Assembly (NCBI GenBank): GCA_027026255.1
Contig: JALVOT010000017.1
Coordinates: 177,670-241,669, forward strand
Length of the DNA: 64,000 nt
From: a candidate division WOR-3 bacterium
Lineage (GTDB): Bacteria > Hydrothermota > Tepidihabitantia > SM23-42
Reading direction: 5' to 3'
A program made the position numbers and the translations under genes. Position 1 is the stretch's first letter, and each line of letters starts with the position of its first letter. Positions 10,670 through 50,542 of the stretch are shown one piece after another. Under the pieces are notes generated by a model, which saw nothing but the letters and a program-made list of their open reading frames with translations, had not been told where the DNA came from and did not search any database.

Positions 10670-13429
10670 CTAAAATCCAATGCCGATACCCAAACGCATT
10701 CTGAATGGGCCATTATGATTCCTGGGGTCAATATAGTAATCATTTCGCGCCGCAATATATGCCCGCTTCTGTTCATAAGGATTAATCAGACCATCGTGAT
10801 TATAATCAGCCTGGGGTGAGTAATGAGAACTCGCAATCGATATATAACCGAATTGCCCGATTGACGGTTCCGGGTCACCATGATTATCCGGCTCGCCCGT
10901 GGTTGAATAAACATCAATCACCTGGTCCGTATTGAACAGATTATATATCATACTCTCTAAGGTCAGATTCAACGGACCCAATTTGATTAACCTGCTGAAA
11001 CTCCAGTCGACATTCCAGTATCCAGGCATCCGCGCTGAATTTTCATCACCCAAACGATTTCCCCTCAAATCTTCAGGGGTATATGGATGACCAGAATGGA
11101 ATGAAAAGACCCAGGAACTATTCAGATTCTGTAAAGGGATAAAGAAAAAGTCCTCGGGTAAACTCAAATCGAAATTGGCGTTGACAATATGGCGCTCATC
11201 AAAATCGAGCCAGTAGTCGATAACCGGCGGTTCCACACCATAATAGTAGTTGTCATAATACCATTCACTTGCATAGGCAGCAGTGCCTTTGGCGAACTGA
11301 AGTGTATAAGTAATACCCAATGCCCACATATTCGACATACGCTTGCTAAGGGTAAATTCGAAGCCCTTCACATTCCCGTAATCGACATTCTTGAACTGGA
11401 AATAAGAAGTAGGCAGTGCAATCACCTCACGGATCTGGGAAAGGTCATAGATATCCTTAAAATAGGCGCTGAAACTGAACGCCATATCATCGGTAAGCTG
11501 GTCTTCCATACCAAATTCATACTTTACTGTTTTCTGCGGCTTTATAAAAACATTTCCGATAACTGCATTACCACGCGAAATCAGGGCTCGAATCACCGAG
11601 GTATCGGTTGAACTATACATATTATCGAGTGCCGGAAGCTGGAAATAGTGGCCATAATCAAAACGGAACTTCATCCGATCCGTAACCGGCAGAGAAAATC
11701 CCAGTCGCGGTGAAATTTTATAACTGCCCGGGGCATTAACCAGTGTATCATTCAAAAAATCACTTGGTTTCTTGAATGTGAATGCCTTGGGGTCGAAATA
11801 ATCAAATCGGAATCCGACACGGGCAATAAGCCCTTCAAAATCCATCTTATCCTGAATATATCCGGCAAGTTGAATCGGTGAACGGTCATAGTAATCCCAG
11901 AATGGATTGGATACCCAGGGAAGATTATTATCAAAGAATTTCATTCGGTATTGAATTACATCAAAACCGGACTTGAATTCATGAATTTTGCCCACTGAAT
12001 GGCTGATGTCGGCTCGAACCTGAAGGTTCTGATTCCACCAGTAGCGCCAGACCCGGTAATCTCCATAGGTATAATACATTCCTTCCACACCATAGGGGTT
12101 GTTGCGTAATGCTGCAACACCGCGGTTTGTGTATTGGGTATGATATTGCATCATACTATCAATTACAATATGGCGAATCATTGAATCCGGAGTTGCATCA
12201 TCAAGAAGTAAAGGAATCAGATGCTCTGCACAGAAACGGTAATCCTCATACCACGCCCGACCGGTTGAGTCTTCCCAGGCATAATCCCGATTTCCATAAG
12301 CCCTGTTATAATGGGTCCAGCCTCCTTTTACCGATACCAGAGTCTGGGCAGTTAACATATAATTAAAAGTCGCCGAGAGAATGGAATTTTTAATTCGACT
12401 CATCGGCATATGGTTAAAGTATTTCAGATTACCGCTTCTCCAGTAGACAAACTGCTCGCGGGAATTATGTGCCGATAAAGTAATCTTTCCCTTGGCATTG
12501 GGAAGATGATATGAGAACTTTGCCTGACTACGATAATCCATCCTTGGTGAAGGCACCCGATAATATGCCTCTACCCAGGAATCGGTAAGCATCAATTCGC
12601 CGGAAAGAAAATAGCGAAAGCGCGGAAGTTTTGGTACCGGACCACCCAGAGAAAGGTTATAGAGGTTATATCCATAGTTCAACTTATTTTTCCAGGCATC
12701 CACTGCTGAGAAGACCTCATCGGTCAAATATCGAAAATTGCCGGCGAATTTTGGTCCGCCTTCTTTGGTCACGATATTAACGACTCCGGAAAGTGCATCT
12801 CCATATTCTGCATCAAACCCACCGGTTTCAACATCAACCTCCTCAACCGCATTGGGACTGATTCGTGCCGATTGATATCCGGTATTCGGCACCTTGGTGA
12901 TAATACCGTCGACAAAATAGGCAACCTCATTACCGCGTCCACCCCGGATATGGGTACCAAGACCGCTCTGGACAACACCTGCCTGCAGGGTGATTACCTG
13001 GTTAATCGTCGTCACCGGAAGTCGCTCCATCTCTTTTGCCGTCACCGATCTTCGTGTGTGCACCTGGTCTCGCACAATTATTTCGCGCTCCGCCTCCACT
13101 GTAACACCTTTAACCGTAATCACCGTTGGAGTTAATTTGAAATTAAGTGCTGTAGTTTGATCTGTATTTACTACAACATTTTTGTAAGTATAGGGATCAT
13201 AACTTATGTATGATGCAGTAACCCGATATGTTCCGGCCGGAACATATAAAATTACAAACTCACCATTCTCGTCGGTAGCTGCACCCAGTTCACTCCCTTC
13301 GATAATTACATCTGCACCGATAAGGGGTTCCCCGGTCTCTTTATCGATAACCCGACCGGTGATCCTGCCAAATTCACCGGCAAAGAGGAAAACCCCGGCA
13401 ATAAGTAGACCAATTATTATCTTTTTCAT
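10670..13429 (-). CDS. TonB-dependent receptor, SusC/RagA-like, with an N-terminal carboxypeptidase-regulatory-like domain.
   Basis: The likely start is MKKIIIGLLIAG (a signal peptide). The CarbopepD_reg-like segment is GRITGRVIDKETGEPLIGADVII...ENGEFVI. A plug-like region follows, then a long beta-barrel ending in a C-terminal Phe. Confidence 0.6.
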   Translation of the reverse strand: MKKIIIGLLIAGVFLFAGEFGRITGRVIDKETGEPLIGADVIIEGSELGAATDENGEFVILYVPAGTYRVTASYISYDPYTYKNVVVNTDQTTALNFKLTPTVITVKGVTVEAEREIIVRDQVHTRRSVTAKEMERLPVTTINQVITLQAGVVQSGLGTHIRGGRGNEVAYFVDGIITKVPNTGYQSARISPNAVEEVDVETGGFDAEYGDALSGVVNIVTKEGGPKFAGNFRYLTDEVFSAVDAWKNKLNYGYNLYNLSLGGPVPKLPRFRYFLSGELMLTDSWVEAYYRVPSPRMDYRSQAKFSYHLPNAKGKITLSAHNSREQFVYWRSGNLKYFNHMPMSRIKNSILSATFNYMLTAQTLVSVKGGWTHYNRAYGNRDYAWEDSTGRAWYEDYRFCAEHLIPLLLDDATPDSMIRHIVIDSMMQYHTQYTNRGVAALRNNPYGVEGMYYTYGDYRVWRYWWNQNLQVRADISHSVGKIHEFKSGFDVIQYRMKFFDNNLPWVSNPFWDYYDRSPIQLAGYIQDKMDFEGLIARVGFRFDYFDPKAFTFKKPSDFLNDTLVNAPGSYKISPRLGFSLPVTDRMKFRFDYGHYFQLPALDNMYSSTDTSVIRALISRGNAVIGNVFIKPQKTVKYEFGMEDQLTDDMAFSFSAYFKDIYDLSQIREVIALPTSYFQFKNVDYGNVKGFEFTLSKRMSNMWALGITYTLQFAKGTAAYASEWYYDNYYYGVEPPVIDYWLDFDERHIVNANFDLSLPEDFFFIPLQNLNSSWVFSFHSGHPYTPEDLRGNRLGDENSARMPGYWNVDWSFSRLIKLGPLNLTLESMIYNLFNTDQVIDVYSTTGEPDNHGDPEPSIGQFGYISIASSHYSPQADYNHDGLINPYEQKRAYIAARNDYYIDPRNHNGPFRMRLGIGIGF

Positions 13430-13440
13430 TATGAACCCCC

Positions 13441-14478
13441 TTACTCTACCCTGACAGGAATCAACCATACAACCGCACTATATCCCTTATTCGGGGTAAC
13501 ATAGTAATACGAATCCTTTGCAACCGCTTCAATATACAGATTTTCAATTCCCTGTCCAGTAATCACAAAACTTCCTGTTCCATCGACCAATTGCACTCTT
13601 TTCTGACCACCCAATGATACAAAGTAAAAATAATCATTTTGCAGCTCAGCGGGGGATATGCTAACCCTGGCAAACAAAGTTTCATTCGCCGGATAAGTTA
13701 ACAAAGAATCTACAGCGCGAAGTCTATTCATTGCGTGACCGGTGTAGGTAGTATCATAACTCGAATACCATACGGTATCAGAAATACCCAAATTCTCGTT
13801 ATAAAAAACTACATTATAAATAGATGCCACAACACCACCCCGATTAGGGAAATAATAGATTCCATATGAGACCCTTTTCAAAACCCATTCACGCGGTTCA
13901 ATAAGATTATTTACACTATCCCTTTTCGGCTCCAGAAAGATCAATCTTGTTCCTTCGCCAACGATATTCTTGGTCTGGTATGCCGTACCCGGACCGGGGT
14001 TTATTATCGTATCCATTGTCTTCAGCTTCATAGCGAGTGTTTCGCCGGTGCCAGGATCAATGATTACACTATCATAGTGCCCGACATATCTAATGTCCTC
14101 ATGCATCTTGGAAATTACACTAAATGTATCCCACAGATAAACCGTGCAGGTAGTATCCTTGGCATACCAGAAATCAGCGAAACGGCTGGAATCACTGATT
14201 GACAGTGCACAGCTATCAATATGCTGCTTTACGAGCGGAGAATCAACACGAAAATAACTGTCAACACCAGGAAAATCAACCGAGGGCATCGTAAACGGTA
14301 TATAGTTTTCAACAAATTGATCGACTGTATTAAGGAATTCAGGATGGGCATCAAGCTGAGCTTGAATCAGTGAATCATCTTGCGGTGTTCCGTTATAGAA
14401 TCCCTCTGGTGGTTCATTGCCGCAGGTAATAAATAACACACCCGCACCTACCAAGAGGCTCAGAAGATATCTCTTCAT
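13441..14478 (-). CDS. Lipoprotein of unknown function.
   Basis: The start is chosen at MKRYLLSLLVGAGVLFITC (signal peptide plus lipobox Cys). The ORF track's longer N-terminus would overlap the upstream gene. Confidence 0.5.
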   Translation of the reverse strand: MKRYLLSLLVGAGVLFITCGNEPPEGFYNGTPQDDSLIQAQLDAHPEFLNTVDQFVENYIPFTMPSVDFPGVDSYFRVDSPLVKQHIDSCALSISDSSRFADFWYAKDTTCTVYLWDTFSVISKMHEDIRYVGHYDSVIIDPGTGETLAMKLKTMDTIINPGPGTAYQTKNIVGEGTRLIFLEPKRDSVNNLIEPREWVLKRVSYGIYYFPNRGGVVASIYNVVFYNENLGISDTVWYSSYDTTYTGHAMNRLRAVDSLLTYPANETLFARVSISPAELQNDYFYFVSLGGQKRVQLVDGTGSFVITGQGIENLYIEAVAKDSYYYVTPNKGYSAVVWLIPVRVE

Positions 14479-14582: not shown

Positions 14583-15197
14583 TTATGGCGAACGAAGATT
14601 AAATGTCACGGGAAACGCCAATCGGACTGGAACCGGCTTATCCCGCTGTTTTGCAGGACTCCATCGGGTCTTTCTCGCTGCTGCAATAGCGGCCTCGTCC
14701 AGTAATGGGTTGCCGCTCGATTTCAGAATCCTTGCGTCGGTCACGCTTCCATCGATACCGACAATAATCATAAGAATAACTTTCCCCTCAATGCCGGCTT
14801 TCCTTGCCATCTCAGGGTATTTTGGTTTCACCGGTTTGATAAGCTTTGGTTTAACCTCCACCCGGGCATAAGGAACAACCTCAATCTCGGGACCGGTAGG
14901 AACTGTCCGAATAATATCTTCTTTAAACTCTGTTGCGGCAATCGTCTCCACCGCCTCTTCTTCAGCAACCTTTGACTCCGCCTCAACCGCAACCTTGGGT
15001 CGCTCCTTTGGAGGTGGTTCCTCATATTTATCAATCTCGGCGGAGATCTCTTCAATCATCGTCACCACTTCATGTTTCAATTTATATGGGGTAGGTTCAG
15101 AATAAGGCACAAATGCAAACAGCAAAATAAAAATAACAAGACTGGCAAATATTCCGGTGCGCAGATATACCCCATATAAGAGTTTATGATCACGCAT
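14583..15197 (-). CDS. tonB: TonB-like energy transducer with a C-terminal TonB domain.
   Basis: 204-aa ORF with an N-terminal TM helix and a Pro/Glu/Lys-rich linker (EEPPPKERPKVAVEAE). The C-terminal region is KPKYPEMARKAGIEGKVILMIIVGIDGSV. Confidence 0.65.
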   Translation of the reverse strand: MRDHKLLYGVYLRTGIFASLVIFILLFAFVPYSEPTPYKLKHEVVTMIEEISAEIDKYEEPPPKERPKVAVEAESKVAEEEAVETIAATEFKEDIIRTVPTGPEIEVVPYARVEVKPKLIKPVKPKYPEMARKAGIEGKVILMIIVGIDGSVTDARILKSSGNPLLDEAAIAAARKTRWSPAKQRDKPVPVRLAFPVTFNLRSP

Positions 15198-15199
15198 TC

Positions 15200-15616
15200 T
15201 TACCTCCTGAATTCAGTGGCAAAAGTAATCTTAAATGCCTTCGCCTCTTTCAGTTGATCAAGCACCTTATCAACCGTTCCATAATTCACCACTTCATCAA
15301 CATTCAGGATTGTAATAAGTTCTGGATTCTCCAAAACCTTGGGCCTCATCTTATCAGCAATCACCTGAGGTGAGATTAAATTATCATCAATATATATCTT
15401 ACTGTTATTATCAATCCAGATATGGCTGACATTTCTGCGCATTAAAATTCGTTCTGTAGACATCGCCTGCGGCAAACGGATGTTTAGATGGAGTCGGGTC
15501 GCCCTGAAAACCGTCGTCACCATAAAAAAGAGGATAAGCAAAAATGCGATATCTGCTGTCGAAGCCGTAGGGATTTCCGGTGTCTGTGTAAAGCGTCTAA
15601 TAATACTCTTTCTCAT
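15200..15616 (-). CDS. exbD: ExbD/TolR-family protein, second copy.
   Basis: 138-aa ORF with a single N-terminal TM (IAFLLILFFMVTTVF). Its size and topology are typical of ExbD. Confidence 0.65.
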   Translation of the reverse strand: MRKSIIRRFTQTPEIPTASTADIAFLLILFFMVTTVFRATRLHLNIRLPQAMSTERILMRRNVSHIWIDNNSKIYIDDNLISPQVIADKMRPKVLENPELITILNVDEVVNYGTVDKVLDQLKEAKAFKITFATEFRR

Positions 15617-16089
15617 TATTTCTTCTCCCCACTGGCCGGAATAAGACTTATCTTCTTGGCTCGAACCTCCCGGCCATCAGGCATCGTTACCTTACACAAT
15701 TTAATCTGATCCAGAACCGCAATCATATTTTTATATGGAGCCTCTTTACTGGCACGCAGCGAAACAACCAGCAGGGTATCCCGTTCACGCAGACGTTCTT
15801 CAACAATTTGCCGTATCTTATCATAATCATCCGATTTTATAATTTCATCATAGCCTACGGTCTTTACCTTCACCTCACCAGCCGGGTTGATTGCAATCGT
15901 AACAATATTTTCCTTCACCACCTTAACCTTCTGTTCCTTTTTTGTCTTTTCTGGCAAAAGCATCTTCAGACCTTTATCCCGGGTAAACACCGTGGAGGTA
16001 AGAAAGAATATCAAAATCAAAAACGCCACATCCCCCATTGATGCGGTAGGGATAGCGGGCGGATTTTTTTTCTTTTCTTTTAATTTCAT
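15616..16089 (-). CDS. exbD: ExbD/TolR-family protein, first copy.
   Basis: 157-aa ORF with an N-terminal TM (MGDVAFLILIFFLTSTVF). Translationally coupled to its neighbours. Confidence 0.7.
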   Translation of the reverse strand: MKLKEKKKNPPAIPTASMGDVAFLILIFFLTSTVFTRDKGLKMLLPEKTKKEQKVKVVKENIVTIAINPAGEVKVKTVGYDEIIKSDDYDKIRQIVEERLRERDTLLVVSLRASKEAPYKNMIAVLDQIKLCKVTMPDGREVRAKKISLIPASGEKK

Positions 16090-16093
16090 TATT

Positions 16094-16732
16094 TCATTTC
16101 TTCCTCTTGGGATATTGTTCGATCAAATAATCAATCAAACCACTTGCTGCCTCCTCCATATCCCTGGTATAACCATCCACCTTGCCGCTAAAGAGGATAT
16201 GGATAATCGCCAGAGGTGCAGCAATAATCAATCCCCATTTTGTGGTGATAAGTGCGGTTGAAATTCCGCTGGCAACAACCGTAGGTTCTACCTCACCAGC
16301 CCGCGCGATTGCTGCAAATGCGGTAATCATACCCATAACTGTCCCCAGAAATCCTAAAAAAGGCGCCACGGTGGTAAGACCGGCGAGTAATGCCATCCCG
16401 CGATCAAGAAAACCGAGTTCGGTTGCTGCACTGCGGGTAACCATCTCCTCCATCGCATCCTTTCCCTGATGCGCTTTTTCCAGGACTGAACGCAAAATTT
16501 TGGCTACCGGAGCCGCGGTCTGATCACAAAGTGCAATACCGGCATTAATTCCCTGTGAATCTATTATCGATATTAAACGCTCTAAAAATCCCCGGGGGTT
16601 AAGTCGTGCCTTGATAAAAAGGCTGTATAATCTCTCCAGAATCAATGCAACACCAAGTATCGCACACACCAATAAAAACCACATTGCAAAACCACCACCA
16701 CCTTCTGTCCCCAATTGGAATTCCCTTATCAT
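16094..16732 (-). CDS. exbB: MotA/TolQ/ExbB proton-channel family protein.
   Basis: 212-aa ORF with three TM helices. The C-terminal TM region LTTVAPFLGFLGTVMGMITAF is typical of ExbB/TolQ. Confidence 0.75.
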   Translation of the reverse strand: MIREFQLGTEGGGGFAMWFLLVCAILGVALILERLYSLFIKARLNPRGFLERLISIIDSQGINAGIALCDQTAAPVAKILRSVLEKAHQGKDAMEEMVTRSAATELGFLDRGMALLAGLTTVAPFLGFLGTVMGMITAFAAIARAGEVEPTVVASGISTALITTKWGLIIAAPLAIIHILFSGKVDGYTRDMEEAASGLIDYLIEQYPKRKK

Positions 16733-16785
16733 ACCTATCCTCCTTTCGTTTTTTTGCCTTTAATAAAAATTAATAAACAACAGTG

Positions 16786-16813
16786 AATTATATTAAAAAT
16801 TTCATAAATGTCA
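16786..16813 (-). promoter_or_regulatory. Sigma70-type promoter for the exbB-exbD-exbD-tonB unit, internal to the long minus-strand array.
   Basis: On the minus strand: TTGACA - 16 nt - TATAAT. A 5'UTR of about 50 nt follows, with a GAAAGGAGG Shine-Dalgarno. Confidence 0.6.
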
Positions 16814-16865
16814 AGAGTAAAAAACCTCATATTATCACCGATTTTTTGACTTAAGTCTTGTTCGG

Positions 16866-17216
16866 TTATCTTGAACTCGCGGTGTAATAGAGAAGCCCTC
16901 CGATAAGAGAAAAGATACCGGCACCCAAGAGAAAAAGACTCTCAATCCGGGCAAGATTCAGTGAACCGATAATCAAATCAAACAGGTTCGAGGGACCAGC
17001 GGTTCCCAGTAGAGGAAAGTAAAAAAGCATTCGGTAAATATGGAAAATCGCCAGGACGATTAAAAAAACTCCGCCGATAATCGGTAATATCCAGATCCCT
17101 TTGCCCTGAATCAGGATAAGAAGTCTTTTTATTATCAACCCATAAATCAAAAGAGCTGCTACGGTCAATAATATTGCAACGATGAAAAGTATCTCAGCCG
17201 GTATGTCTGCCTTCAT
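16866..17216 (-). CDS. Small polytopic membrane protein.
   Basis: 116-aa ORF consisting almost entirely of 3-4 hydrophobic helices. Confidence 0.5.
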   Translation of the reverse strand: MKADIPAEILFIVAILLTVAALLIYGLIIKRLLILIQGKGIWILPIIGGVFLIVLAIFHIYRMLFYFPLLGTAGPSNLFDLIIGSLNLARIESLFLLGAGIFSLIGGLLYYTASSR

Positions 17217-17243
17217 AAAACCTCCTTTTAAGACACAACAATT

Positions 17244-17615
17244 CTATTTACCTCTTGTAACTGCGTAAAATCTGAGATTGGCAACCAGCGAAAGAACCCC
17301 GGAGATAAAGAAAAACCCATAAGCAAGATAGTTAACCCCGGCCTTCGGCAACATTATCCTTCCACCAATACCGCAATAAAAAAGTTGAATAATCGCAAAG
17401 ATAAGGATACCCGTAGGTGCAATAATCATAAACTGCCAGTCTGTATGCTCACCCAGGACAATCTCATAGCGTCGGGCGATTATCCCCAAGAAGATGAAGG
17501 CAAGCCATAAAAGAACTGCTCCGAGTATAAGAAGAAAGTTGGGGACAACCGCCAGGGAATGATAGGTGTCCGGGTCCATTCCAAATGGCGCCATAATCAA
17601 CATAATCTGTAGCAT
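17244..17615 (-). CDS. Small polytopic membrane protein.
   Basis: 123-aa ORF with 4 predicted TM helices. Confidence 0.5.
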   Translation of the reverse strand: MLQIMLIMAPFGMDPDTYHSLAVVPNFLLILGAVLLWLAFIFLGIIARRYEIVLGEHTDWQFMIIAPTGILIFAIIQLFYCGIGGRIMLPKAGVNYLAYGFFFISGVLSLVANLRFYAVTRGK

Positions 17616-17649
17616 AAAACCTCCTGAAAATTTAAATAAATTTTTTAAT

Positions 17650-18234
17650 TCACTTCACAAGTTCTAATAATTTATTTGTCAAACTGGCTCCCCGGGATGG
17701 TCCGATAACCATACCTGCAGCCTTACCCAGGGCAAAGATAAAACGTCGGATATCATCCTCATATAGTTCATCAGGATTTATCTTCTGGGTCTTCAATTGA
17801 TTTTTATAGATTCTTTCTGTAAAATCCCCCAAGTAATCACTCATAACGGCCTTGATTTTATCCAGAAGTTCCGGACCCATTACCGACCCGGGTTTTTCTT
17901 CAGCTTCAGCTTCCGGCTTTCCTTTCAGTTCCTCAAGCAGGTTATAAAGTTGAGAAACATCCAGCCCGGCTCTGGAATCAAAAAGGGTTCCCACCAGAAA
18001 ATCATCTTCAAACTCTATAATTAAGGACTTCTTCTCACCCAGTATCTCCAGGGTATCAATCTTCACATCACCCACTGCATTGATTGTCTCAAAGAGCACA
18101 GTCGCGGTATGGGAAAATTTTTCAATCAGTGCCTCACCAGAACCGGTAGTGGAAACCTCACCGGAACTGGTTGCCGTAAAAGGACAGGGAAGTCCCCGGG
18201 ATTCAATCTTTTCCAATATATCTCTTTCTATCAT
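17650..18234 (-). CDS. Roadblock/LC7 (MglB-like) domain protein.
   Basis: 194-aa ORF. The N-terminal roughly 110 aa have the roadblock-like alternation, and an acidic C-terminal extension follows. The assignment comes from pattern and context, not from strict motifs. Confidence 0.4.
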   Translation of the reverse strand: MIERDILEKIESRGLPCPFTATSSGEVSTTGSGEALIEKFSHTATVLFETINAVGDVKIDTLEILGEKKSLIIEFEDDFLVGTLFDSRAGLDVSQLYNLLEELKGKPEAEAEEKPGSVMGPELLDKIKAVMSDYLGDFTERIYKNQLKTQKINPDELYEDDIRRFIFALGKAAGMVIGPSRGASLTNKLLELVK

Positions 18235-18914
18235 TTCATCCTTTCAATAACCGCCTGAACCTTAGCTCTTGCCTGGGATGAACCCATCTCTTCAACCGCC
18301 TCCTTTACCAGAAAGTCTATGATTGTGCGCAGTCCTTTAAGAAAATCTTCTTCTTTATCCTCAGGAGGTTTACTCTTAAAGACAAGTTTATTCTCAACAA
18401 TACCAACGAAAGGAAGCAAATCACCGGCGAACACAGTCAACCCCTTATTTAGACAATCAAGCCAATGTTTCAGATTTCCCTCACCGCCGAATTCACTCAC
18501 CAGAAGATTAATCTGACGCAGCTTGGAACTGAGACTTCGGGGAATCTCAGTCTTTGATTTTTCCTCTACCTCTACCTTTTTCTCTATCTCTACCTTTTCC
18601 TCTGCCTTCTTCCCGGCATCAGCCCGGATTCTTTCGATTATTGCCCGGGGATTGGCCTCGGCTTTAATCTCAAGACCAAGATATTTTGATTCATACAAAA
18701 AGATTAACAGCCGATTGCCGCCGTAATTGAATAATATGTATTTAATCTCACCAAGCTCCAGACTATTCTTTATCACCTCACCGGCTGATGAAAAAAAGGC
18801 GGTCAGGTCACCCAGAGGTCGGGATGAAGAACCCTTGACCTCTTCAACCGAACCATCCTCAGCATTGACAACCGCATACCCCAAAACCTCAACAATCTTA
18901 TCCAGTATCTCCAT
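18231..18914 (-). CDS. Roadblock/LC7 (MglB-like) domain protein.
   Basis: 227-aa ORF. The N-terminal region MEILDKIVEVLGYAVVNAEDGSVEEVKGS...GNRLLIFLYESKYLGLEIKAEANP resembles the LC7/roadblock fold. A charged C-terminal tail follows. Confidence 0.45.
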   Translation of the reverse strand: MEILDKIVEVLGYAVVNAEDGSVEEVKGSSSRPLGDLTAFFSSAGEVIKNSLELGEIKYILFNYGGNRLLIFLYESKYLGLEIKAEANPRAIIERIRADAGKKAEEKVEIEKKVEVEEKSKTEIPRSLSSKLRQINLLVSEFGGEGNLKHWLDCLNKGLTVFAGDLLPFVGIVENKLVFKSKPPEDKEEDFLKGLRTIIDFLVKEAVEEMGSSQARAKVQAVIERMK

Positions 18915-18916
18915 CG

Positions 18917-19762
18917 CTATTTTTCATTCTTCAACTTGTTGTTAAACTCTTCATATTTCTTTTTAAAAAGTAATTTGCCGTAGAGTTTTTGCCCTTCTTT
19001 TTTGAGGAACTGATTAAAATCCTTGAAAAAGTGTTCAATAATATCCTGCCCCACCTTGGCTCCAACCTTAATCTCTAAATATTCCTGCTCAATATGAAGG
19101 GCATTAAAGAGTGCTTTATTTTTCTCATCCAGTTCTGCCCACCGCTTTAACCAGTTGAATCCATTCTTCTTGAAGACCTCAAAAAACCTTTCCAGATAAT
19201 TTACCACCTTTGCCATCACCCGTTCCGCCTCTTTGGGGTCATAAATCAAACCCTTCTCCTTTAACCAGACAATGGTTTTGACCGCCTCATATCCTCCAAT
19301 CTTTGAACCGGCAATAACCTCGGCCAAACTCTTTTTACCATCAATAAGGGCGAGAACCTGCCAGTCGGTTCTTCTTAAAGCAACTGCAGATTCTAATTCC
19401 TTTGTTGACTTGGTGAGCACCGCGTCCATTGGGGGCAGATTATCTTTTATCTTCTGAAATTCAATACGCCGTTTTTCAATCCTTTCCCTTAACTTCCCCA
19501 CCCCTACGGAAATTGTCTGTTGCGGAGGTTCCACCCCGACATCAAAAGCCGCCTTTTCCGCCTCAATAAAAGAAAGATTGATTAACGCCTCCATCCCTTC
19601 CCGGGAACCGTCTGTAGCATGAACAACAAGCCCGTCCTTTAAAAATATCTCACCACCAATATTACCGAGCACCCTCAAAACCCCGGTCTTTTTAACCCGG
19701 CTGAGAAATTCCAGGACATCACCAAGTTTGAATTCCTGAAGGTCAATTTCAAAACAGGACAC
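18917..19762 (-). CDS. DUF4388-domain protein.
   Basis: 281-aa ORF. Its N-terminus (FKLGDVLEFLSRVKKTGVLRVLGNIGGEIFLKDGLVVHATDGSREGMEALINL) matches the DUF4388 pattern (G-L-x-x-F-x-L-x-D-L-L-Q-x-L ... G-x-L ... G-x-I-x-F-x-x-G). Confidence 0.6.
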   Translation of the reverse strand: MSCFEIDLQEFKLGDVLEFLSRVKKTGVLRVLGNIGGEIFLKDGLVVHATDGSREGMEALINLSFIEAEKAAFDVGVEPPQQTISVGVGKLRERIEKRRIEFQKIKDNLPPMDAVLTKSTKELESAVALRRTDWQVLALIDGKKSLAEVIAGSKIGGYEAVKTIVWLKEKGLIYDPKEAERVMAKVVNYLERFFEVFKKNGFNWLKRWAELDEKNKALFNALHIEQEYLEIKVGAKVGQDIIEHFFKDFNQFLKKEGQKLYGKLLFKKKYEEFNNKLKNEK

Positions 19763-20376
19763 TATATTATCCCCAACCAGTTATGAAGCAGAAAATAGAC
19801 CCGGCCGATTAAAAGGGAGATTCGCGCCATTACGGTATAACCAAATGAAGCACCAAATGAAACCATCATAAACCAGATTCCCACTTTTGCAGCAAAACCT
19901 AAGGTTCCTTTATGCTCCTTGGAAAAATAGAAATATATTAATGTAAAAACAACCCCGGCAATGATAAGAAGATTGGAAAAGACCTTGAATGGATGAATCC
20001 CGGCCAGGGGCAAAAATGTCGCCTGAAGTTGAGGCAGGATATCGCCTTGAATAATCTGGGTGATAAAAAGGGCCATTGAAATTCCCATCGTAAAGGTAAG
20101 GGGAATTCTTACCAACCAGCTCAGCTTTGGGATAAAAGGGGCAAACATCAAAAGTCCAATGATAATTGGAATAAGATAGACCATATTACCTTTGACAATC
20201 AGGGGTTCAAACAGATTGGGCCAGGCAAAATCAAACCAGAGAATCACTGCCCAATATCCTGCAGAAATACCAACAAAGATATGCTCGGCAACCTTATAAA
20301 ATGGGTTATCCTTATATAAAAATGAATAGATTGCCAGGGTCAAAAGGGAAGCAATCCAGACACCCAGAACCTCCAT
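19762..20376 (-). CDS. Polytopic membrane protein. Paralogue of 1334..1975.
   Basis: 204 aa; see the reciprocal alignment at 1334..1975. Confidence 0.65.
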   Translation of the reverse strand: MEVLGVWIASLLTLAIYSFLYKDNPFYKVAEHIFVGISAGYWAVILWFDFAWPNLFEPLIVKGNMVYLIPIIIGLLMFAPFIPKLSWLVRIPLTFTMGISMALFITQIIQGDILPQLQATFLPLAGIHPFKVFSNLLIIAGVVFTLIYFYFSKEHKGTLGFAAKVGIWFMMVSFGASFGYTVMARISLLIGRVYFLLHNWLGII

Positions 20377-21209
20377 TACCGTTTACTCCTTTGATAAACG
20401 AGAATCACATTTCCCAGAATAATAAATAGAACAAGCAGTGCATGAACAATTGACTGGGAATCCATACCGGCAAGTGCTCGACCCCTTCTTTTAACCAGGG
20501 TTTCATATTCCGCAGCACCCTTTAATCCACCCATAAGCCCCACCAACTGTCCTGATGCAAGATATGGATATTGCTGGGGAGCCATAATCGCTGTGGTTGC
20601 TGCACAGACCGGAATCCCGAATCGGGCGTGGAAATAGATAATCCAGTGCAGGACCCCGGGATCACCGGCTGATAAACTCATCACCAGCGCCATATCCCGG
20701 GCCGACTTCACCTCTTTACCCAGGGGCAAAGAATCGATCGGCACTCCAGCATAATCAGTTTTAACCATATCACCGACATTTTTCCCTAGGCTGAGCAGCA
20801 TCACCGGACCGCCTGGTTTATATCCTACATTAATATAATCAACTCCATACTTTTTATTGTAATGTGCCCCGATATTTTCCAATGCCATATTACCCAGGGG
20901 AGTTCCTGCGGGCCATAATGCAAGCATAAAGATGCGTAGATTTTTTCGAAAGCAGTGTTCAAGAAATGCCTCGGTTGCAGGATAAAGTTCCGCCTCACTT
21001 CCCGGGTCATAATCAATGGAAACAACCACCACCGAACCTTCAGGCAGGGACTCTACTTTATCATATATATTCTTAACCGGCTTTGTAATATCCACGGGCA
21101 GACCGATCGGGATAAGCAGCGGAACAATTACTGCAACGGCAACCAATAAAAAGATAATTCTTCGATCTAAAGCGGACAATCGGGCAAGTATATTATTCAC
21201 CTGCCCCAT
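20376..21209 (-). CDS. Bitopic membrane protein. Paralogue of 474..1337.
   Basis: The start is trimmed to the Met (MGQVNNILARL...) whose ATG overlaps the upstream stop. This is the same coupling as in the + strand copy. Confidence 0.6.
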   Translation of the reverse strand: MGQVNNILARLSALDRRIIFLLVAVAVIVPLLIPIGLPVDITKPVKNIYDKVESLPEGSVVVVSIDYDPGSEAELYPATEAFLEHCFRKNLRIFMLALWPAGTPLGNMALENIGAHYNKKYGVDYINVGYKPGGPVMLLSLGKNVGDMVKTDYAGVPIDSLPLGKEVKSARDMALVMSLSAGDPGVLHWIIYFHARFGIPVCAATTAIMAPQQYPYLASGQLVGLMGGLKGAAEYETLVKRRGRALAGMDSQSIVHALLVLFIILGNVILVYQRSKR

Positions 21210-21210
21210 A

Positions 21211-21834
21211 CTACTCCTTACCTCCGCCCATATAACTTCTCTCAATCCCTAATAAGACCCTCAAGCCCATAGAAATCATACCCAGGTCAATACCGAATAG
21301 AATTCCCCTTTTTGCTGCGGTATTGGGAACAGTCATTATCCATTCAACCAGATTGGGAAATCCATGCCAGATCCAGTAACCGATTGGAACCCGGCCGATC
21401 ATTACAAGCACGGCGGCAATCAAAAGCAGGGTCGCCTCAGGACTTCTGGCTCGAAACGCCCGAAATGCTGCTGAGGCGACAAAGAACGCCAGCAGTGAAA
21501 ACATCGTCGCACCCAAGGGAATCTGAACATTTTTGTAAAAATATAAAAACAATCCACCTTCGGGTCCGCCGATAAAACCGGCTGCCATCATAACCAGGAG
21601 GCAGATTAAAAGAATGATGCTGTACTGCCAATCCCTTAATCTTCTCTGAATCTTTTCAAGATTTATCTTAATGATATTAAATATTCCGATAAAGATAAAG
21701 AATGCCATCACCCCAATATACCAGTTCTGAAAGGTCTGGGATGTATCCTGAATTCCTTTCAAGGGAATAAAGAAACTTACCAGCATAAAGAAACCAAATC
21801 CAAAAACCACGATTATCGGTAAAATACTTTTCAT
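21211..21834 (-). CDS. Polytopic membrane protein. Paralogue of 1..477.
   Basis: 207 aa with 5-6 TM helices. Confidence 0.65.
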   Translation of the reverse strand: MKSILPIIVVFGFGFFMLVSFFIPLKGIQDTSQTFQNWYIGVMAFFIFIGIFNIIKINLEKIQRRLRDWQYSIILLICLLVMMAAGFIGGPEGGLFLYFYKNVQIPLGATMFSLLAFFVASAAFRAFRARSPEATLLLIAAVLVMIGRVPIGYWIWHGFPNLVEWIMTVPNTAAKRGILFGIDLGMISMGLRVLLGIERSYMGGGKE

Positions 21835-22913
21835 TATCTTGTTGTCTTAAAAAGGTTATAAAAATATTGATTGCCTAAGAGTCTTGTAATAACGCCAATC
21901 ACAATCACCAGAATAAATATCAGTTTGCCAAAATCCTGTCCTTTTAAAGAGCCAATTTGAATCGGTTCCTGGGATAGATAGGCACTTGCCGCATAAAGCT
22001 CTTCACCGAGCAGGGTGTAATCACAGGCCGCCACGAAGAATGGTAATTGATCAGGCATCGCCGTTCCTGCAATCTGGATTGCGCCGGTATAATGTCCGGT
22101 CTCAGCCAGAATGAGTGATTCTGCATAAAAGCAGCCGAGATAGAGATTGGTTGCCGGTTTCTCTCGAACCATCATACCATCCACCGCAGAGACATAACCG
22201 AACTGGTCGTCAGTAAGATACCGGATATTATCGGCATTAAACCAGTCAGGTCTTCCCACCTTGGTCGCTGACTCTTTAACTACCTGCTGCGCCATACTCA
22301 TCGCCATCGCCTTACTGGTCGGCACATAAAGTGGGGTGCCGTATTCTGCAGTCTTTTCCGCAACCCTGGCAAGGATACTCATCGCGGCAATGGTCTGGGG
22401 ATTATCGATATCCATTATCCCGGGGACAAACAGCACCGGCTTACCCATCTCAGTCGCCCGACCGATCGCCTCTTCGACCGCTGTAAGGGCTGGAATCTTT
22501 CTGATGTATAACTTTTCACCCTTGCGGGCACGGGAAATGTAGAAAAGAATTACGGCGAACAGGATAATCATACAGACGGCAATATTCAGACGGCCAAGAT
22601 TGAAAATCTGGGCAATCGGCCTTACCGGCCCCGCAGTATTTGAAAAAAACACCGTATCCAATCCGGCGCCTTTGATGCGATAATAATATTTAGTTCCGGC
22701 CTTTACCGCGGTATCCACATAGGTTGTCTTACCCGATTCAACCCGGGCGATCTCTTTAAAATCATGCTCCGGGAAGATACTGCGCAGGATTTGATAACTA
22801 CTTATTAATGTATCACTACTCCAGGACAGTGTAATACTGGAACCGTCGTCATTGGGTGTATCATAAACATCAAGACTTATCCCCTGCACCAGTATTAATA
22901 ATATCAAAAACAT
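21834..22913 (-). CDS. Membrane protein with an N-terminal fibronectin-III-like domain, two TM segments and a central domain of about 200 aa. First gene of the long minus-strand array.
   Basis: 359-aa ORF. The FN3-like region is SITLSWSS...YYYRIKGAG, followed by a TM helix LNIAVCMIILFAVILFYI. A leaderless sigma70 promoter lies immediately upstream. Confidence 0.5.
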   Translation of the reverse strand: MFLILLILVQGISLDVYDTPNDDGSSITLSWSSDTLISSYQILRSIFPEHDFKEIARVESGKTTYVDTAVKAGTKYYYRIKGAGLDTVFFSNTAGPVRPIAQIFNLGRLNIAVCMIILFAVILFYISRARKGEKLYIRKIPALTAVEEAIGRATEMGKPVLFVPGIMDIDNPQTIAAMSILARVAEKTAEYGTPLYVPTSKAMAMSMAQQVVKESATKVGRPDWFNADNIRYLTDDQFGYVSAVDGMMVREKPATNLYLGCFYAESLILAETGHYTGAIQIAGTAMPDQLPFFVAACDYTLLGEELYAASAYLSQEPIQIGSLKGQDFGKLIFILVIVIGVITRLLGNQYFYNLFKTTR

Positions 22914-22959
22914 TATATTATAATATTCAAATTTAAATAAATGTCAAGATGTAGAGGTT

Positions 22960-23364
22960 CTTACTCCTCTCCACTTTTTTCATTGTGCCTCCCGGATTAA
23001 TTGCAACGGTATTCTGGACAGAATAAATTTCCCTGAGATTATTAAACCAGGACGAAAAATACTCAACAACTTCGTTTTACTTTTTTATATTATTTTATTG
23101 GTCATTTGAAAAATTTCTCTACCATCTTTACTTGGTCCCATTTTCTCAGCGCGGACGGCATTTCCATTTTCTCAGCGCGGGCGGCGTTTCCATTTTTCTC
23201 AGCGCGGGCGGCGTTTCTCATTTTTCTCAGCGCGGGCGGCGTCCCCGCCGCCCGCTGGAGGTTTATCATTCCTGCAGCCCGCCAGGCGCCCTGCCTCGGG
23301 ACGGGACGCCCCCCGGCTATATTGTACTTACAAAAAGCCGGGACAAAAAGTGGAGGGAAATCAG
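22960..23364 (+). repeat. Repeat element copy A. It is full length and carries four 27-bp tandem units.
   Basis: Left terminal inverted repeat (TIR) CTTACTCCTCTCCACTTTTT, right TIR AAAAAGTGGAGGGAAATCAG. Internally, TTTTCTCAGCGCGGGCGGCGTTTCCAT-type units repeat four times and end in the hairpin GCGGGCGGC-gtcccc-GCCGCCCGC. Confidence 0.85.
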
Positions 23365-25862: not shown

Positions 25863-26897
25863 TCAATATAGTGCAATTCTTTCTTTTAAAAACTCGGGTG
25901 AAAGTTTACCTTCCGACACCAATCTCCTTTTTGACTGTTCAAGGTTTTGCATGCCAAACTGACGCCCGGTCTGGATTACCGATTCAATCTGATGTACCTT
26001 TTCCTCACGAATCAGATTGCGCACCGATTGGGTTGCAATCATAATTTCAAATGCCGCAACCCGACCGGAGCTGTCCCGGCGTGGATATAGCCTCTGGGCA
26101 ATCACCGCCTGCAGTGATTCAGAAAGTTGCAGCCTGATTTGATTCTTCTGACCGGCAGGGAAGATATCAATTATTCTTGTGATGGTCTTGGCGGCGCTTG
26201 ATGTGTGCAGGGTAGCAAAAACTAAATGGCCGGTCTCAGCCGCGGTCAGGGCAAGTGAGATTGTCTCCAAATCCCGCATCTCACCGACCAGAATATAATC
26301 AGGGTCCTGACGCAGGGCGCTTCTTAAGGCAATAGAAAAAGAGTGAGCATTGGTTCCCAATTCCCGTTGATTAACCACACATTTTTTTGAATGATGGATA
26401 TACTCAATCGGGTCCTCGATTGTGATAATATGACCTTCTTTATTAGAGTTTAGAAAATCAATCATCGCTGCCAATGTGGTAGATTTACCACTGCCGGTGG
26501 GTCCGGTAACAAGTATTAAACCATAATCAAGATTAATCACTTCTTTAATTATTCTGGGGAGCCCGATCTCTTCCATATCAGGAATTTTTGTCGGAATGAT
26601 TCTAAAGACGGCAGCCAGACCCTGCCTCTGATAAAATACATTCACCCGGAATCTTCCCAATCCAGAAAATTCTAAGGAAAAATCAATCTCCCTGGTCTTT
26701 TGCAATTCTACTTTTTGGCTTTCTGACAAAATCTGATTGATAAACATTTCGATGATTTCATTATCAAGTAATTCTTTATTCAGCGGCTGCATCCGACCAC
26801 ATACCCTCAGCATAATCGGAGAACCGGCGCTGAGATGGAGGTCACTCGCCTTCTGCTCAACTGAATATCCAAGTAATTCCCTGATATCATTCTTCAT
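25863..26897 (-). CDS. pilT: Type IV pilus retraction ATPase PilT.
   Basis: 344-aa ORF with the Walker A motif GPTGSGKSTT and PilT-type length and signature regions. Confidence 0.9.
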   Translation of the reverse strand: MKNDIRELLGYSVEQKASDLHLSAGSPIMLRVCGRMQPLNKELLDNEIIEMFINQILSESQKVELQKTREIDFSLEFSGLGRFRVNVFYQRQGLAAVFRIIPTKIPDMEEIGLPRIIKEVINLDYGLILVTGPTGSGKSTTLAAMIDFLNSNKEGHIITIEDPIEYIHHSKKCVVNQRELGTNAHSFSIALRSALRQDPDYILVGEMRDLETISLALTAAETGHLVFATLHTSSAAKTITRIIDIFPAGQKNQIRLQLSESLQAVIAQRLYPRRDSSGRVAAFEIMIATQSVRNLIREEKVHQIESVIQTGRQFGMQNLEQSKRRLVSEGKLSPEFLKERIALY

Positions 26898-27468
26898 ATT
26901 GTTTCTCCAATTCGATTATAATCTTCACATTCCCCTTCTTTTTTTGTTTACCATCTTTATCTTCAATCTCAATGACCGCCTGGTCGGCTCGTATCTCAAT
27001 CCTTTGCCTCTGTTTAATCGAGGTTTCAATTACCGCCTCCGTCCCTTTATGAAGAAAAAATTTATTGAGTATTTGTTCAATCTTAGCCGGGTCTGCCCCG
27101 GATACTACTACATCTTTATTGAGAGTCTTTTTAATTTTTTCAATAACCGAAATATTCGTCGGGTCACCGATAACTACATAAATCTTGTTCTCGGTCTGAT
27201 AAAGCGGCAGGATGCAGTTGTCCAGTAAAAGTTTTTCAGGGAATTTACTGATTAATTGATTATCGAACATCTCCGGATTCAATTGAACAAAAGGGATATC
27301 CGCCTGTTCACTCAACATCCAGAAAAGATCACTCGAAGATATATAGCCCAGTTCAATCAAAATTTCACCGAGGCGTTTTCCTTTCTCTTTCTGTAATTTC
27401 AAAGCGGTATCAAGCTGTTCCTGAGTAATAATTCCATACTTCACCATCATCTCACCCAGAAGAAACAT
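26887..27468 (-). CDS. Stand-alone T2SSE_N/MshEN-like domain protein (putative c-di-GMP receptor).
   Basis: 193-aa ORF with tandem 24-residue motifs YGIITQEQLDTALKLQ and RLGEILIELGYISSSDLFWMLSEQ. These match the MshEN consensus RLGxxLLxxGLLxxxxLxxxLxxQ. Confidence 0.65.
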   Translation of the reverse strand: MFLLGEMMVKYGIITQEQLDTALKLQKEKGKRLGEILIELGYISSSDLFWMLSEQADIPFVQLNPEMFDNQLISKFPEKLLLDNCILPLYQTENKIYVVIGDPTNISVIEKIKKTLNKDVVVSGADPAKIEQILNKFFLHKGTEAVIETSIKQRQRIEIRADQAVIEIEDKDGKQKKKGNVKIIIELEKQYEE

Positions 27469-27470
27469 TC

Positions 27471-27830
27471 CTATACCCCTATCAATTCAAAGACCTTGGA
27501 CTTCAAGGCACTGATATCAATCGGCTTGGTGATAAATGCCGCAACATCCGAAGTCTTAACCACCATATCATCTTCCATCAAACGATAGGCTGAGCATATA
27601 ATAATAGGAATATTCTTATTCCTTTCCCTTATCCGTTCAATCGCCTCAAGACCATGGGTCCCCGGCATCTTGATATCAATAATGAGCAGGTCAAATGATT
27701 CCCGGGTAATAAGTTTCACCGCCTCCCGACCATCAACCGCCTCACTTATGTCATAGTCATCTCCTAAGGTTTCCCTTAACAGGAGTCGAATCGACTCCTC
27801 ATCATCACAGACCAAAATCCTTTTCTTCAT
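27471..27830 (-). CDS. Single-domain response regulator (CheY-like receiver).
   Basis: 119-aa ORF with the receiver-domain residues DD...D...K (ILVCDDEESIR, LLIIDIKMPG, ITKP). Confidence 0.85.
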   Translation of the reverse strand: MKKRILVCDDEESIRLLLRETLGDDYDISEAVDGREAVKLITRESFDLLIIDIKMPGTHGLEAIERIRERNKNIPIIICSAYRLMEDDMVVKTSDVAAFITKPIDISALKSKVFELIGV

Positions 27831-29410: not shown

Positions 29411-29442
29411 TTTAAACTCCTTTAGACTTAAGTATATAATAA

Positions 29443-29470
29443 ATTATAACTAAATTTTTTAATTTGTCAA
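29443..29470 (-). promoter_or_regulatory. Sigma70-type promoter in front of the kinase gene.
   Basis: On the minus strand: TTGACA - 16 nt - TATAAT. A GC hairpin (29487..29510) lies just upstream. Confidence 0.5.
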
Positions 29471-29564
29471 TGCCCAATAATATCCCGGGCCGGGGTGTGT
29501 GCCCCGGCCCAAAAGGAGAAGGTAGAAAAATATACATCTGCTGACCACCTTTACAGGAATCCCG

Positions 29565-49812: not shown

Positions 49813-50542
49813 ATTCCGGGGCATGGATACGGAGTTCCGCACCCGCGGAAAATGATGGAGCAACATCAGGGTATACTGAGTAGTCAAAACTCAGGGTGAA
49901 TTGATTTCCCCAGAACGGCAATTTCAGGGCAACCCCCTGGCAAAAGTTTACCGGAGGATACTCTAAACGTTCAATAAATCGACGTGGGGTGCCAAGATTC
50001 TTTACTGTGCTTCCGAAATAGAGAAATCTGTAGGGGTTAAATACCAATCCGAAATCCAGCAATCCTCCGTAGGCAGTATATCGATATAACTGACTCCGAA
50101 CAATCTTTATTCCTCCGCCGAATGAGACAATCTTATGTCTTCCATAGGAATAGCCGTATCCGATATTCAACAACATATCTGAATTGGTAAATTCACTGCC
50201 CTGCTCTCCGCGCTCAGAATATTCAACATCATCGGCCCCGAGATAGGATAGTCCAATACCCAGACCACTATGTTTACTTAAAGGAATGGCTGAAGCTAAG
50301 GTGTAGTAATTAAAATAGAGCAGATGGTTCATCGCCATTCCGGAAAGCCAGTATTTTTTTATAATTCCCAGACCTCCAGGATTCCAGAACAGGGCGTTGG
50401 CATCATCGCTGATTGCAGTAAATGCACCACCCATTGCTACAGGCCTTACCCCGATACCCAGTTTAAGAAATGTATAACCGGTTGCCCCGGGTTTGAAGAT
50501 TGAACCGATAATAAAAAAAGCAAATAATATTGGTTGCACCAT
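49571..50542 (-). CDS. PorV/PorQ-family outer-membrane protein, second copy.
   Basis: 323-aa ORF. The N-terminal motif GATGYTFLKLGIGVRPVAMGGAFTAISDDANALFWNPGGLG parallels the protein at 6571..7686. Confidence 0.5.
   Translation of the reverse strand: MVQPILFAFFIIGSIFKPGATGYTFLKLGIGVRPVAMGGAFTAISDDANALFWNPGGLGIIKKYWLSGMAMNHLLYFNYYTLASAIPLSKHSGLGIGLSYLGADDVEYSERGEQGSEFTNSDMLLNIGYGYSYGRHKIVSFGGGIKIVRSQLYRYTAYGGLLDFGLVFNPYRFLYFGSTVKNLGTPRRFIERLEYPPVNFCQGVALKLPFWGNQFTLSFDYSVYPDVAPSFSAGAELRIHAPEFMESMGQKKISGFALMAGYRSGYGEGTLSGFSFGFSLEIILSPSLFLDVGGLMLSYGYLGNSERLELGLHYAPTKARARK

Follow-up and report, generated by a model that had tools for sequence, protein, structure and literature searches.

Do thirteen consecutive genes for unassigned membrane proteins, signalling adaptors and a Ton motor encode one machine of the cell envelope, or several units that stand in a row? 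The question is raised by a locus of a candidate division WOR-3 bacterium (GenBank assembly GCA_027026255.1), located in a stretch of 64,000 nucleotides of contig JALVOT010000017.1 (positions 177,670 to 241,669 of the forward strand), hereafter called the window, to which all coordinates refer unless another locus is named. A first-pass annotation of this DNA had described the genes at 14583–22913 as a single, translationally coupled array forming one candidate machine, in which the adaptors would act on ExbB and ExbD as in the Agl gliding motor. Comparison with related loci points to a different arrangement. The reading we favour, and to which we would give about an even chance, is that of a lineage-defining envelope locus of WOR-3 bacteria consisting of three separately promoted units, in which transport of the Ton/Oar type is joined to a novel inner-membrane complex.

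The thirteen open reading frames (ORFs), named g01 to g13, were confirmed at 14583–22913, all co-directional on the minus strand; g14 to g17 are further minus-strand genes downstream, and the features described below lie on this strand unless stated otherwise. The spacing of 0–4 nt or overlap attributed to all of the genes holds for nine of the twelve junctions (−4 to +4 nt) but not for g07/g08, g08/g09 and g09/exbB, where the genes are separated by 34, 27 and 133 nt, respectively. A metagenome scan with an alignment of g07 yielded 47 loci, whose g07 proteins are 39–54% identical to that of the window. The presence of the other genes was determined by tblastn and scored only where a contig reaches the expected position. 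The genes g01–g04 were found in 22 of 22 to 27 of 27 testable arrays, g05 in 28 of 28, g06 in 29 of 29, g08 in 33 of 33 (with a median identity of 72%) and g09 in 30 of 30, followed by ExbB (25 of 27), TonB (19 of 20), g14 (14 of 15) and the TonB-dependent transporter (TBDT) g15 (12 of 13). Four species genomes, three assigned to WOR-3 and one to Stahlbacteria (loci L005, L014, L019 and L020), carry the same array. These thirteen genes form a genuine array that hardly varies across the uncultured WOR-3 lineage. A lack of synteny between the DUF4388 and roadblock genes and exbBD-tonB in related genomes had been named as the result that would speak against their grouping; the opposite was observed, since they are kept together in 25 of 27 testable arrays of a deep lineage.

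Conserved gene order does not mean one transcript, and the promoters divide the array. The first-pass annotation had noted one obvious internal promoter, in front of exbB, which is indeed a perfect TTGACA-16-TATAAT (P2, 16787–16814); two more conserved promoters were found before g01 (P1, 22920–22947, TTGACA-16-TATTAT, 11/12 matches in a consensus scan) and before g14 (P3, 14582–14609, GTGACA-16-CATAAT, 10/12 matches). Equivalent intergenic regions of orthologous loci were scored by the number of matches, out of 12, to TTGACA-16-TATAAT, and scores of at least 10/12 were counted. Such a promoter stands before g01 in 26 of 26 orthologous loci (as TTGACA-16-TAnnAT), before exbB in 32 of 33, and in the tonB/g14 gap in 21 of 21, with a median score of 12/12. 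In the controls, the same score was reached by one of 45 g07/g08 gaps, none of 40 g08/g09 gaps and nine of 195 random windows of 205 nt. P2 is followed by a 54-nt leader with a AAAGGAGG ribosome-binding site and then by exbB. The −10 box of P1 ends 6 nt from the ATG of g01 (22911–22947), so the g01 mRNA is predicted to be leaderless; among the 26 orthologous loci this distance is mostly 6–10 nt.

Natural deletions fall on the same boundaries. On the 391-kb contig of locus L098, the order g01 to g09 is followed directly by g14-g15-g16-g17, and all four genes exbB-exbD-exbD-tonB are missing (L098, 10988–12799), exactly at the promoter-flanked slot. Locus L094 has kept TonB and lacks exbB and exbD. 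Both loci are natural variants of the array and potential natural "knock-outs" for comparison. Because of the three conserved promoters and the absence of the Ton block at its slot in L098, the locus is predicted to comprise three adjacent units: g01–g09, exbB-exbD-exbD-tonB, and g14 onward.

The second unit is an ordinary Ton motor. ExbB (g10, 16094–16732) has the channel domain (PF01618, E 6.3e-26) and three hydrophobic segments; two ExbD paralogues (g11, 15616–16089, PF02472, E 2.3e-18; g12, 15200–15616, PF02472, E 1.9e-21) carry the aspartate of the transmembrane (TM) segment in the motifs GDVAFL and ADIAFL, respectively; and TonB (g13, 14583–15197) shows an N-terminal TM anchor, a Pro/Glu/Lys-rich linker and the TonB_C domain (PF03544, E 1.9e-24; TIGR01352, 76.5 bits against a cutoff of 27.1). 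The earlier identification of these four genes stands.

The third unit opens with a lipoprotein gene (g14, 13441–14478), whose product has a signal peptide followed by Cys-Gly-Asn and matched neither SusD nor any other family. The next gene, g15 (10670–13429), had been described as a SusC-like receptor. This assignment was rejected, as the SusC model TIGR04056 reached only 60.3 bits against a cutoff of 368 and matched only the N-terminal part of the protein. Instead, g15 combines an N-terminal CarboxypepD_reg extension (PF13620, E 1.9e-20), a Plug domain (PF07715, E 9.6e-11) and matches to TBDT models in the barrel region, and it belongs to the Oar subclass of TBDTs, defined by CarboxypepD_reg, Plug and a 22-strand barrel (PMC6434023). 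A TonB-box-like stretch, VTVEAE, is visible by eye before the plug. Downstream lie g16 (7696–10662), encoding a large secreted protein of 988 aa with weak matches to the C-terminal sorting domain of type IX secretion (T9SS; type A, TIGR04183, E 0.0098) and to the C-terminus of PorZ (E 2.6e-4), and g17 (6571–7686), whose product falls into the PorV/PorQ family of outer-membrane proteins (NF033709, 216.8 bits against a cutoff of 90). Two proteins with a Por_Secre_tail domain in the Pfam scan follow at 3856–6465 and 2041–3840, so that a PorV-like protein and T9SS cargo are found downstream of the array on the same strand as the receptor, as the first-pass annotation had it. At 49571–50542, also on the minus strand, there is a second PorV/PorQ-like gene, a paralogue whose product shows 32% identity to g17 over 191 residues. 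A riboswitch search for a clue to the TBDT substrate found none and returned three tRNAs only.

This layout has a described counterpart. The Ton-Oar cluster of Myxococcus xanthus (Gomez-Santos et al. 2019, PMC6434023) consists of exbB1-exbD1-exbD2-tonB1 and the TBDT Oar, which the protease PopC needs for its secretion. Both loci have one ExbB, two ExbD and one TonB in a row together with a PF13620/Plug TBDT, and on the basis of this match the second and third units can be regarded as a putative outer-membrane transport module driven by the proton motive force. They differ in that the WOR-3 locus has a lipoprotein gene before the TBDT, a protein with a weak T9SS sorting signal and a PorV-family protein after it, and a nine-gene operon directly upstream. 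The SusC/SusD loci of Bacteroidota are similar in combining a TBDT in the outer membrane with a surface protein, enzymes that are secreted and a component of the inner membrane; however, the TBDT here is not of the SusC family, no SusD or glycoside hydrolase was recognised, and the inner-membrane component belongs to no known transporter family.

The role of Oar in PopC secretion brings in one alternative, by which the Oar-type TBDT and the Ton motor would move a product outward rather than inward, and the four membrane proteins g01–g04 would serve at the inner membrane as the exporter of g16 or of a surface polymer, or as the platform for its assembly. The shared Oar architecture and exbB-exbD-exbD-tonB order (PMC6434023), the conservation of the large secreted g16 beside the TBDT with a PorV-family protein next to it, and the variable length of the ectodomain of the g01 family, described below, are compatible with such an outward path. 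However, g16 has its own signal peptide and a weak T9SS sorting tail, which imply export by Sec and T9SS; protein export by a TBDT is known from one case only; and the four membrane proteins bear no resemblance to a known exporter. Export is, in our view, a very doubtful explanation, and the least probable of those considered.

In contrast to the ordinary Ton/TBDT part, the g01–g09 operon and the four-gene cassette at its head are undescribed. This cassette, g01–g04, is referred to as A-B-C-D. Protein A (g01, 21834–22913) consists of an N-terminal signal or TM segment, a periplasmic FN3 domain, a TM segment, a DUF6754 core and a C-terminal TM segment. Protein B (g02, 21211–21834) is polytopic, with about six TM segments; protein C (g03, 20376–21209, with the start set at the ATG at 21209 by orthologue comparison) has a soluble domain of about 200 aa between two TM segments; and protein D (g04, 19762–20376) is a polytopic membrane protein. 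In hydropathy profiles, g02, g04, g08 and g09 are polytopic, while g01 and g03 are bitopic with large soluble domains; according to the positive-inside rule, the core of A is predicted to be cytoplasmic and the soluble domain of C periplasmic. The description of these as four unknown membrane proteins applies to g02–g04, which have no known family, but not to g01, which already belongs to a Pfam family, DUF6754 (PF20539, E 5.9e-118, 393.1 bits against a cutoff of 27, profile positions 3–256 of 257). The FN3 domain of A was recognised by a PDB profile match to titin (E 3e-9), in agreement with Foldseek. More generally, the NCBIfam scan of g01–g09 and g14 gave no matches, and g02, g03, g04, g06, g07, g08 and g09 matched neither a Pfam nor an NCBIfam family.

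At least 8000 relatives of g01 were found. When one genome per species was scanned with an alignment of DUF6754, at least 589 stretches were obtained; 80 loci were kept and all their ORFs clustered. These loci come from Zixibacteria, Cloacimonadota, Poribacteria, Eisenbacteria, Latescibacteria, Ignavibacteria, Fermentibacteria/Aegiribacteria, Stahlbacteria, Coatesbacteria, Edwardsbacteria, Armatimonadota, Gemmatimonadota and others, and the gene order A-B-C-D is kept over at least 15 phylum-level lineages. The order holds in 63–73 of 84 loci; according to the ORF clustering, B stands beside A in 68 loci, and C is present in 64 and D in 63. The cassette is thus distributed widely in the Fibrobacterota–Chlorobiota–Bacteroidota group and allied candidate phyla (FCB group), and in some other phyla, with about 50% identity between phyla and dozens of invariant residues. 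The genes g05–g13 are almost always missing from these loci. The A-B-C-D cassette is autonomous and occurs in many phyla without any other genes of the array.

The DUF6754 core is joined to N-terminal ectodomains of very different lengths, in proteins of about 280 to about 950 residues, which suggests that the family may be built as a variable periplasmic module on a constant membrane core. A DUF6754 search of 1.84 billion cluster representatives gave 2292 matches at E ≤ 1e-30, a number to be taken as an upper bound only, because giant FN3-repeat proteins score too; the four-subunit cassette itself is represented by well over a thousand clusters at 50% identity. Residues 238–323 of g01 (about 21945–22202) are the most conserved stretch of the DUF6754 core, with many invariant acidic and hydrophobic residues, and judging from the structural model they may fold only inside a complex or within the membrane. 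Paralogy between A and C and between B and D was also considered, and hhalign gave no credible relation for either pair.

Cassettes are often multiplied. Tandem arrangements of two or three whole A-B-C-D copies are common, and examples come from Zixibacteria and Ignavibacteria (L026, L028, L044, L053, L055, L060, L061, L062 and L066). In the window, a second, paralogous copy at 1–1975 on the plus strand is convergent with the first locus, and its proteins B′, C′ and D′ are 50%, 36% and 50% identical to g02, g03 and g04, respectively. A′ is cut off by the window start, and its gene, with PF20539, was located just beyond it. Another 2.7 kb out from A′, in divergent orientation, stands a paralogous Oar-like TBDT gene, whose product shows 50.6% identity to g15 (cassette copy and TBDT together: L132, 8249–11502 and 2755–5544).

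What stands next to the cassette in other phyla bears on whether its position beside a Ton/TBDT cluster has any meaning. It could be a juxtaposition only, in which A-B-C-D and the adaptors form a housekeeping or metabolic membrane complex, perhaps linked to a GlmL-type ATPase, beside an unrelated Ton/TBDT cluster for nutrient uptake, an arrangement frozen in one lineage. Most cassette loci of other phyla have neither TBDT nor Ton genes, and the commonest partner there is an upstream, co-directional set of four genes, c18-c6-c4-c7, encoding, in this order, a small TM protein, a protein of about 130 aa, an actin-fold ATPase of the GlmL/MutL family (PF13941) and a protein of 375 aa without a known family. 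The set is found directly upstream of the cassette in L001, L010, L013, L022, L040, L044, L047, L060, L072, L079 and other loci, often after the glycine-cleavage genes gcvT-H-P1-P2. The other recurrent neighbours that were annotated (M28 peptidase, ABC-2 transporter, DHQ synthase, sulfatase, Orn/DAP decarboxylase) are heterogeneous and share no common theme, and the units of the WOR-3 locus are promoted independently, as would also be expected of such a juxtaposition. The proteins c6 and c18 were considered as roadblock-like candidates and dropped, since they had no Pfam or NCBIfam match and gave no cross-matches between profile hidden Markov models (HMMs).

The window and the 10 kb beyond its start contain none of c4, c7, c6 and c18, and the GlmL-like set does not explain the WOR-3 arrangement. 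Moreover, there are at least three further arrangements, from Fermentibacteria/Aegiribacteria and from loci of the Eisenbacteria type, in which A-B-C-D is followed by a TBDT encoded on its own strand. In L010, L013 and L022 (Fermentibacteria, Aegiribacteria), a g15-like TBDT comes after the cassette, succeeded by ExbB, ExbD and TonB; in L035, L072 and L079 the cassette precedes a TBDT together with a g16 orthologue (24–27% identity), with a g17 orthologue as well in L072 and L079; and in L070 only a TBDT was seen after it. The TBDTs of L072 and L079 are 27–30% identical to that of the window over nearly the full length, and their g17 orthologues about 31%. Both cassette copies of the WOR-3 genome have an Oar-type TBDT within a few kilobases, and the gene order is retained over deep divergence. 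This recurrent evidence suggests that the cassette may be tied to outer-membrane transport, and we regard mere juxtaposition as unlikely.

Within the WOR-3 lineage, the cassette is followed by five genes of its own. The products of g05, g06 and g07 are predicted to be cytoplasmic because they have no hydrophobic segment. The first of them, g05 (18917–19762), is a PATAN/DUF4388 protein as originally called (PF14332, 39.3 bits against a cutoff of 25), and its orthologue in locus L040 matches PF14332 over the full domain (E 5.6e-15). The two genes after it had both been called roadblock/LC7 proteins, and here the evidence is uneven. For g07 (17650–18234), the roadblock fold (α-β-β-α-β-β-β) in residues 1–103 is structurally confirmed, followed by a C-terminal three-helix bundle at residues 122–193; the most similar roadblock fold is that of MglB itself, at a sequence identity of about 10–16%. 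For g06 (18231–18914), the evidence comes from sequence comparisons below threshold. The protein of the window has no Pfam match; its L040 orthologue matches PF03259 (Robl_LC7) over positions 4–90 of 91 (E 7.3e-4, 19.7 bits, below the cutoff of 23); the best PDB match of the family profile is the archaeal roadblock protein 7yh1_D, aligned in register over the whole domain (E 0.097, and E 0.68 for a roadblock PDB match with a deeper alignment); the alignment to the roadblock domain of g07 by hhalign is likewise in register, with E 0.0046 and a low probability; and some relatives are labelled "Roadblock/LC7 domain-containing" in UniRef and NCBI. The N-terminal domain of g06 (residues 1–90) is thus probably a Roadblock/LC7 domain.

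The C-terminal domain of g06, about 100 residues long, is shared with g05 (hhalign E 5e-4 over 96 columns; hmmsearch cross-matches at E 1e-8 and 3e-11). A C-terminal domain common to all three proteins was rejected, as only the g05–g06 relation held and g07 gave no significant match (E 0.18–0.26). The two genes that close the first unit, g08 (17244–17615) and g09 (16866–17216), encode small membrane proteins of three to four TM segments each, as noted before, and are weak paralogues (hhalign E 0.007). The families of g06 and g07 comprise only 181 and 117 clusters, respectively, and every member with an informative taxon name belongs to WOR-3 or TA06. Outside the WOR-3 lineage, the profile HMMs of g05, g06 and g07 matched only L040 among the cassette loci; there, the trio lies 5 kb downstream of the cassette, past two TPR/PMT_2 proteins and a lipoate ligase, and no Ton genes were seen as far as the locus reaches. 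The trio g05–g07 and the pair g08–g09 appear specific to the WOR-3 lineage.

Roadblock proteins normally act with a small GTPase, and the statement that none is visible in the window was borne out. A tblastn search with an MglA query gave no match better than E 2.8, either in the window or within 10 kb in 131 related loci, and a Walker-A scan for a GTPase returned only a PilT-like ATPase and one spurious ORF of 100 aa. Since none is found in the window or in the 131 loci, the adaptors would be either GTPase-free or dependent on a GTPase encoded elsewhere.

The known systems that contain such adaptors differ from the locus. Unlike the MglA/MglB module of M. xanthus and Thermus thermophilus, the array has no MglA-like GTPase nearby, and both of its roadblock proteins have extra C-terminal helical domains and are encoded among membrane-protein genes. 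The conservons of Streptomyces comprise the roadblock protein CvnB, the GTPase CvnD, a DUF742 protein and the sensor-kinase-like CvnA; here, no CvnD-type GTPase, DUF742 or CvnA-like protein was recognised. PATAN regulators reportedly include PatA of Anabaena and PixG and its relatives in Synechocystis, which are said to bind the type IV pilus motor. With them g05 shares a PATAN/DUF4388 domain above the Pfam threshold; however, in contrast to PATAN regulators with a receiver domain, g05 has none (no Response_reg match), its C-terminal domain being homologous to that of g06 instead, and its gene stands among those of membrane proteins, not beside chemotaxis-like genes. A signalling cluster at 25863–30842 on the minus strand encodes a PilT-like T2SSE ATPase, an MshEN-domain protein, a receiver, a PAS histidine kinase and a GAF-HD_5 protein. 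Its ATPase/MshEN/receiver/kinase part (25863–29410) was considered as a partner of the PATAN protein and rejected, as it is not conserved beside the array in other loci.

The Agl-Glt system of M. xanthus, which unites a TolQ/ExbB-like protein, two TolR/ExbD-like proteins and roadblock-type regulators in one organism, is the model behind the original proposal. By this analogy, all thirteen proteins would form a single envelope-spanning motor, in which the PATAN and roadblock adaptors steer the ExbB/ExbD2 stator as MglA/MglB do with Agl, and A-B-C-D and g08–g09 serve as accessory stator or track. The almost invariant order of the 13 genes, although g07 is only 39–54% identical between loci, the similarity of the g07 fold to MglB, the T9SS cargo and the PorV-family gene downstream, and the absence of the combination from the literature searched would fit a motor of this kind. 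Yet exbB and g14 each have their own strongly conserved promoter, the Ton block is missing in L098 and exbB and exbD in L094, so that the motor genes are dispensable from the array, and in L040, over the stretch that this locus covers, the trio follows A-B-C-D without Ton genes. TonB and a Plug-domain TBDT adjoin the stator genes directly, which is the signature of ordinary Ton clusters and not of Agl-Glt. Furthermore, the window and the 131 loci have no MglA-like GTPase, and no Glt-like families appeared in general Pfam scans of the window genes, in which dedicated Glt profiles were not used. Together with the autonomy of the cassette and the Ton-Oar layout, these observations speak against one translationally coupled 13-gene machine with Agl-like steering of ExbBD, and we consider it improbable.

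The reading of three joined units can be put as a mechanism. A-B-C-D would be an undescribed inner-membrane complex, and the WOR-3 cassette would have gained a cytoplasmic trio, the PATAN/DUF4388 protein and two Roadblock/LC7 proteins, together with two small paralogous membrane proteins. The second unit would be a canonical Ton motor, driven by the proton motive force, that energises the Oar-type transporter, through which a substrate crosses the outer membrane with g14, g16 and the PorV-family g17 as surface partners. At the inner membrane, A-B-C-D may handle the same substrate or couple energy, while the two roadblock proteins, probably as a heterodimer, and the PATAN protein may dock on A-B-C-D, on g08–g09 or on both, and regulate or position them. 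The gene content, folds, synteny, modularity and promoters are shown by the results above, and all physical contacts, the direction of transport and the substrate in this scheme are inferred. A more specific version holds that g01–g09 are an unrecognised inner-membrane machine with a four-subunit core, which in the WOR-3 lineage would have taken up a GTPase-free platform of a roadblock heterodimer and PATAN protein as well as two small membrane subunits, working in concert with a Ton-energised gate; this we put forward tentatively, as a possibility rather than an expectation.

Several observations weigh against the favoured arrangement. No fold or function is assignable to A, B, C or D: their profiles found no relative among PDB sequences except for the FN3 domain of A; in the AlphaFold2 model of A, the FN3 domain is confident and residues 238–323 have pLDDT (predicted local distance difference test) values below 50; and Foldseek returned FN3 matches only, because the conserved core is poorly modelled. 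In most phyla no TBDT or Ton gene lies within 10 kb of A-B-C-D, and the GlmL-like ATPase module, the commonest partner there, suggests something other than outer-membrane transport. FCB genomes contain many TBDT genes, and the adjacency of A-B-C-D and TBDTs was counted without a null model. Roadblock proteins normally act together with a GTPase, and neither the window nor the 131 loci yielded one. Finally, no terminator-like hairpin was seen between g09 and exbB, so that read-through across the units is possible.

Beyond the start of the array, in the otherwise AT-rich divergent gap between g01 and the acyl-CoA dehydrogenase genes, a GC-rich unit of about 27 nt (CGCCGCCCGCGCTGAGAAAAATGGAAA, minus strand) occurs four times in tandem at 23136–23254.

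The suggestion that the combination is not a described system agrees with the literature searched, in which no paper joined DUF4388 with roadblock proteins or roadblock/MglB with ExbB, and which contained no mention of DUF6754; there is a substantial chance that the first unit is categorically new. To our knowledge, there is no genetic system for the WOR-3 phylum. The conserved perfect sigma-70-type promoters and the putatively leaderless first gene inform on gene expression in these bacteria. The A-B-C-D cassette is conserved, often present in multiple copies and widespread in uncultured phyla, with no assigned fold, function or literature, and the locus offers an entry point to the function of this large "dark" family of membrane proteins. 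PATAN and Roadblock/LC7 modules otherwise regulate small GTPases, pilus motors and cell polarity, and occur here with no GTPase in sight, so that the locus is also an entry point to the role of bacterial roadblock proteins where no GTPase is encoded nearby. If g01–g09 do form an inner-membrane machine working in concert with a Ton-energised gate, the A-B-C-D core would represent a new class of envelope transporter or energy transducer.

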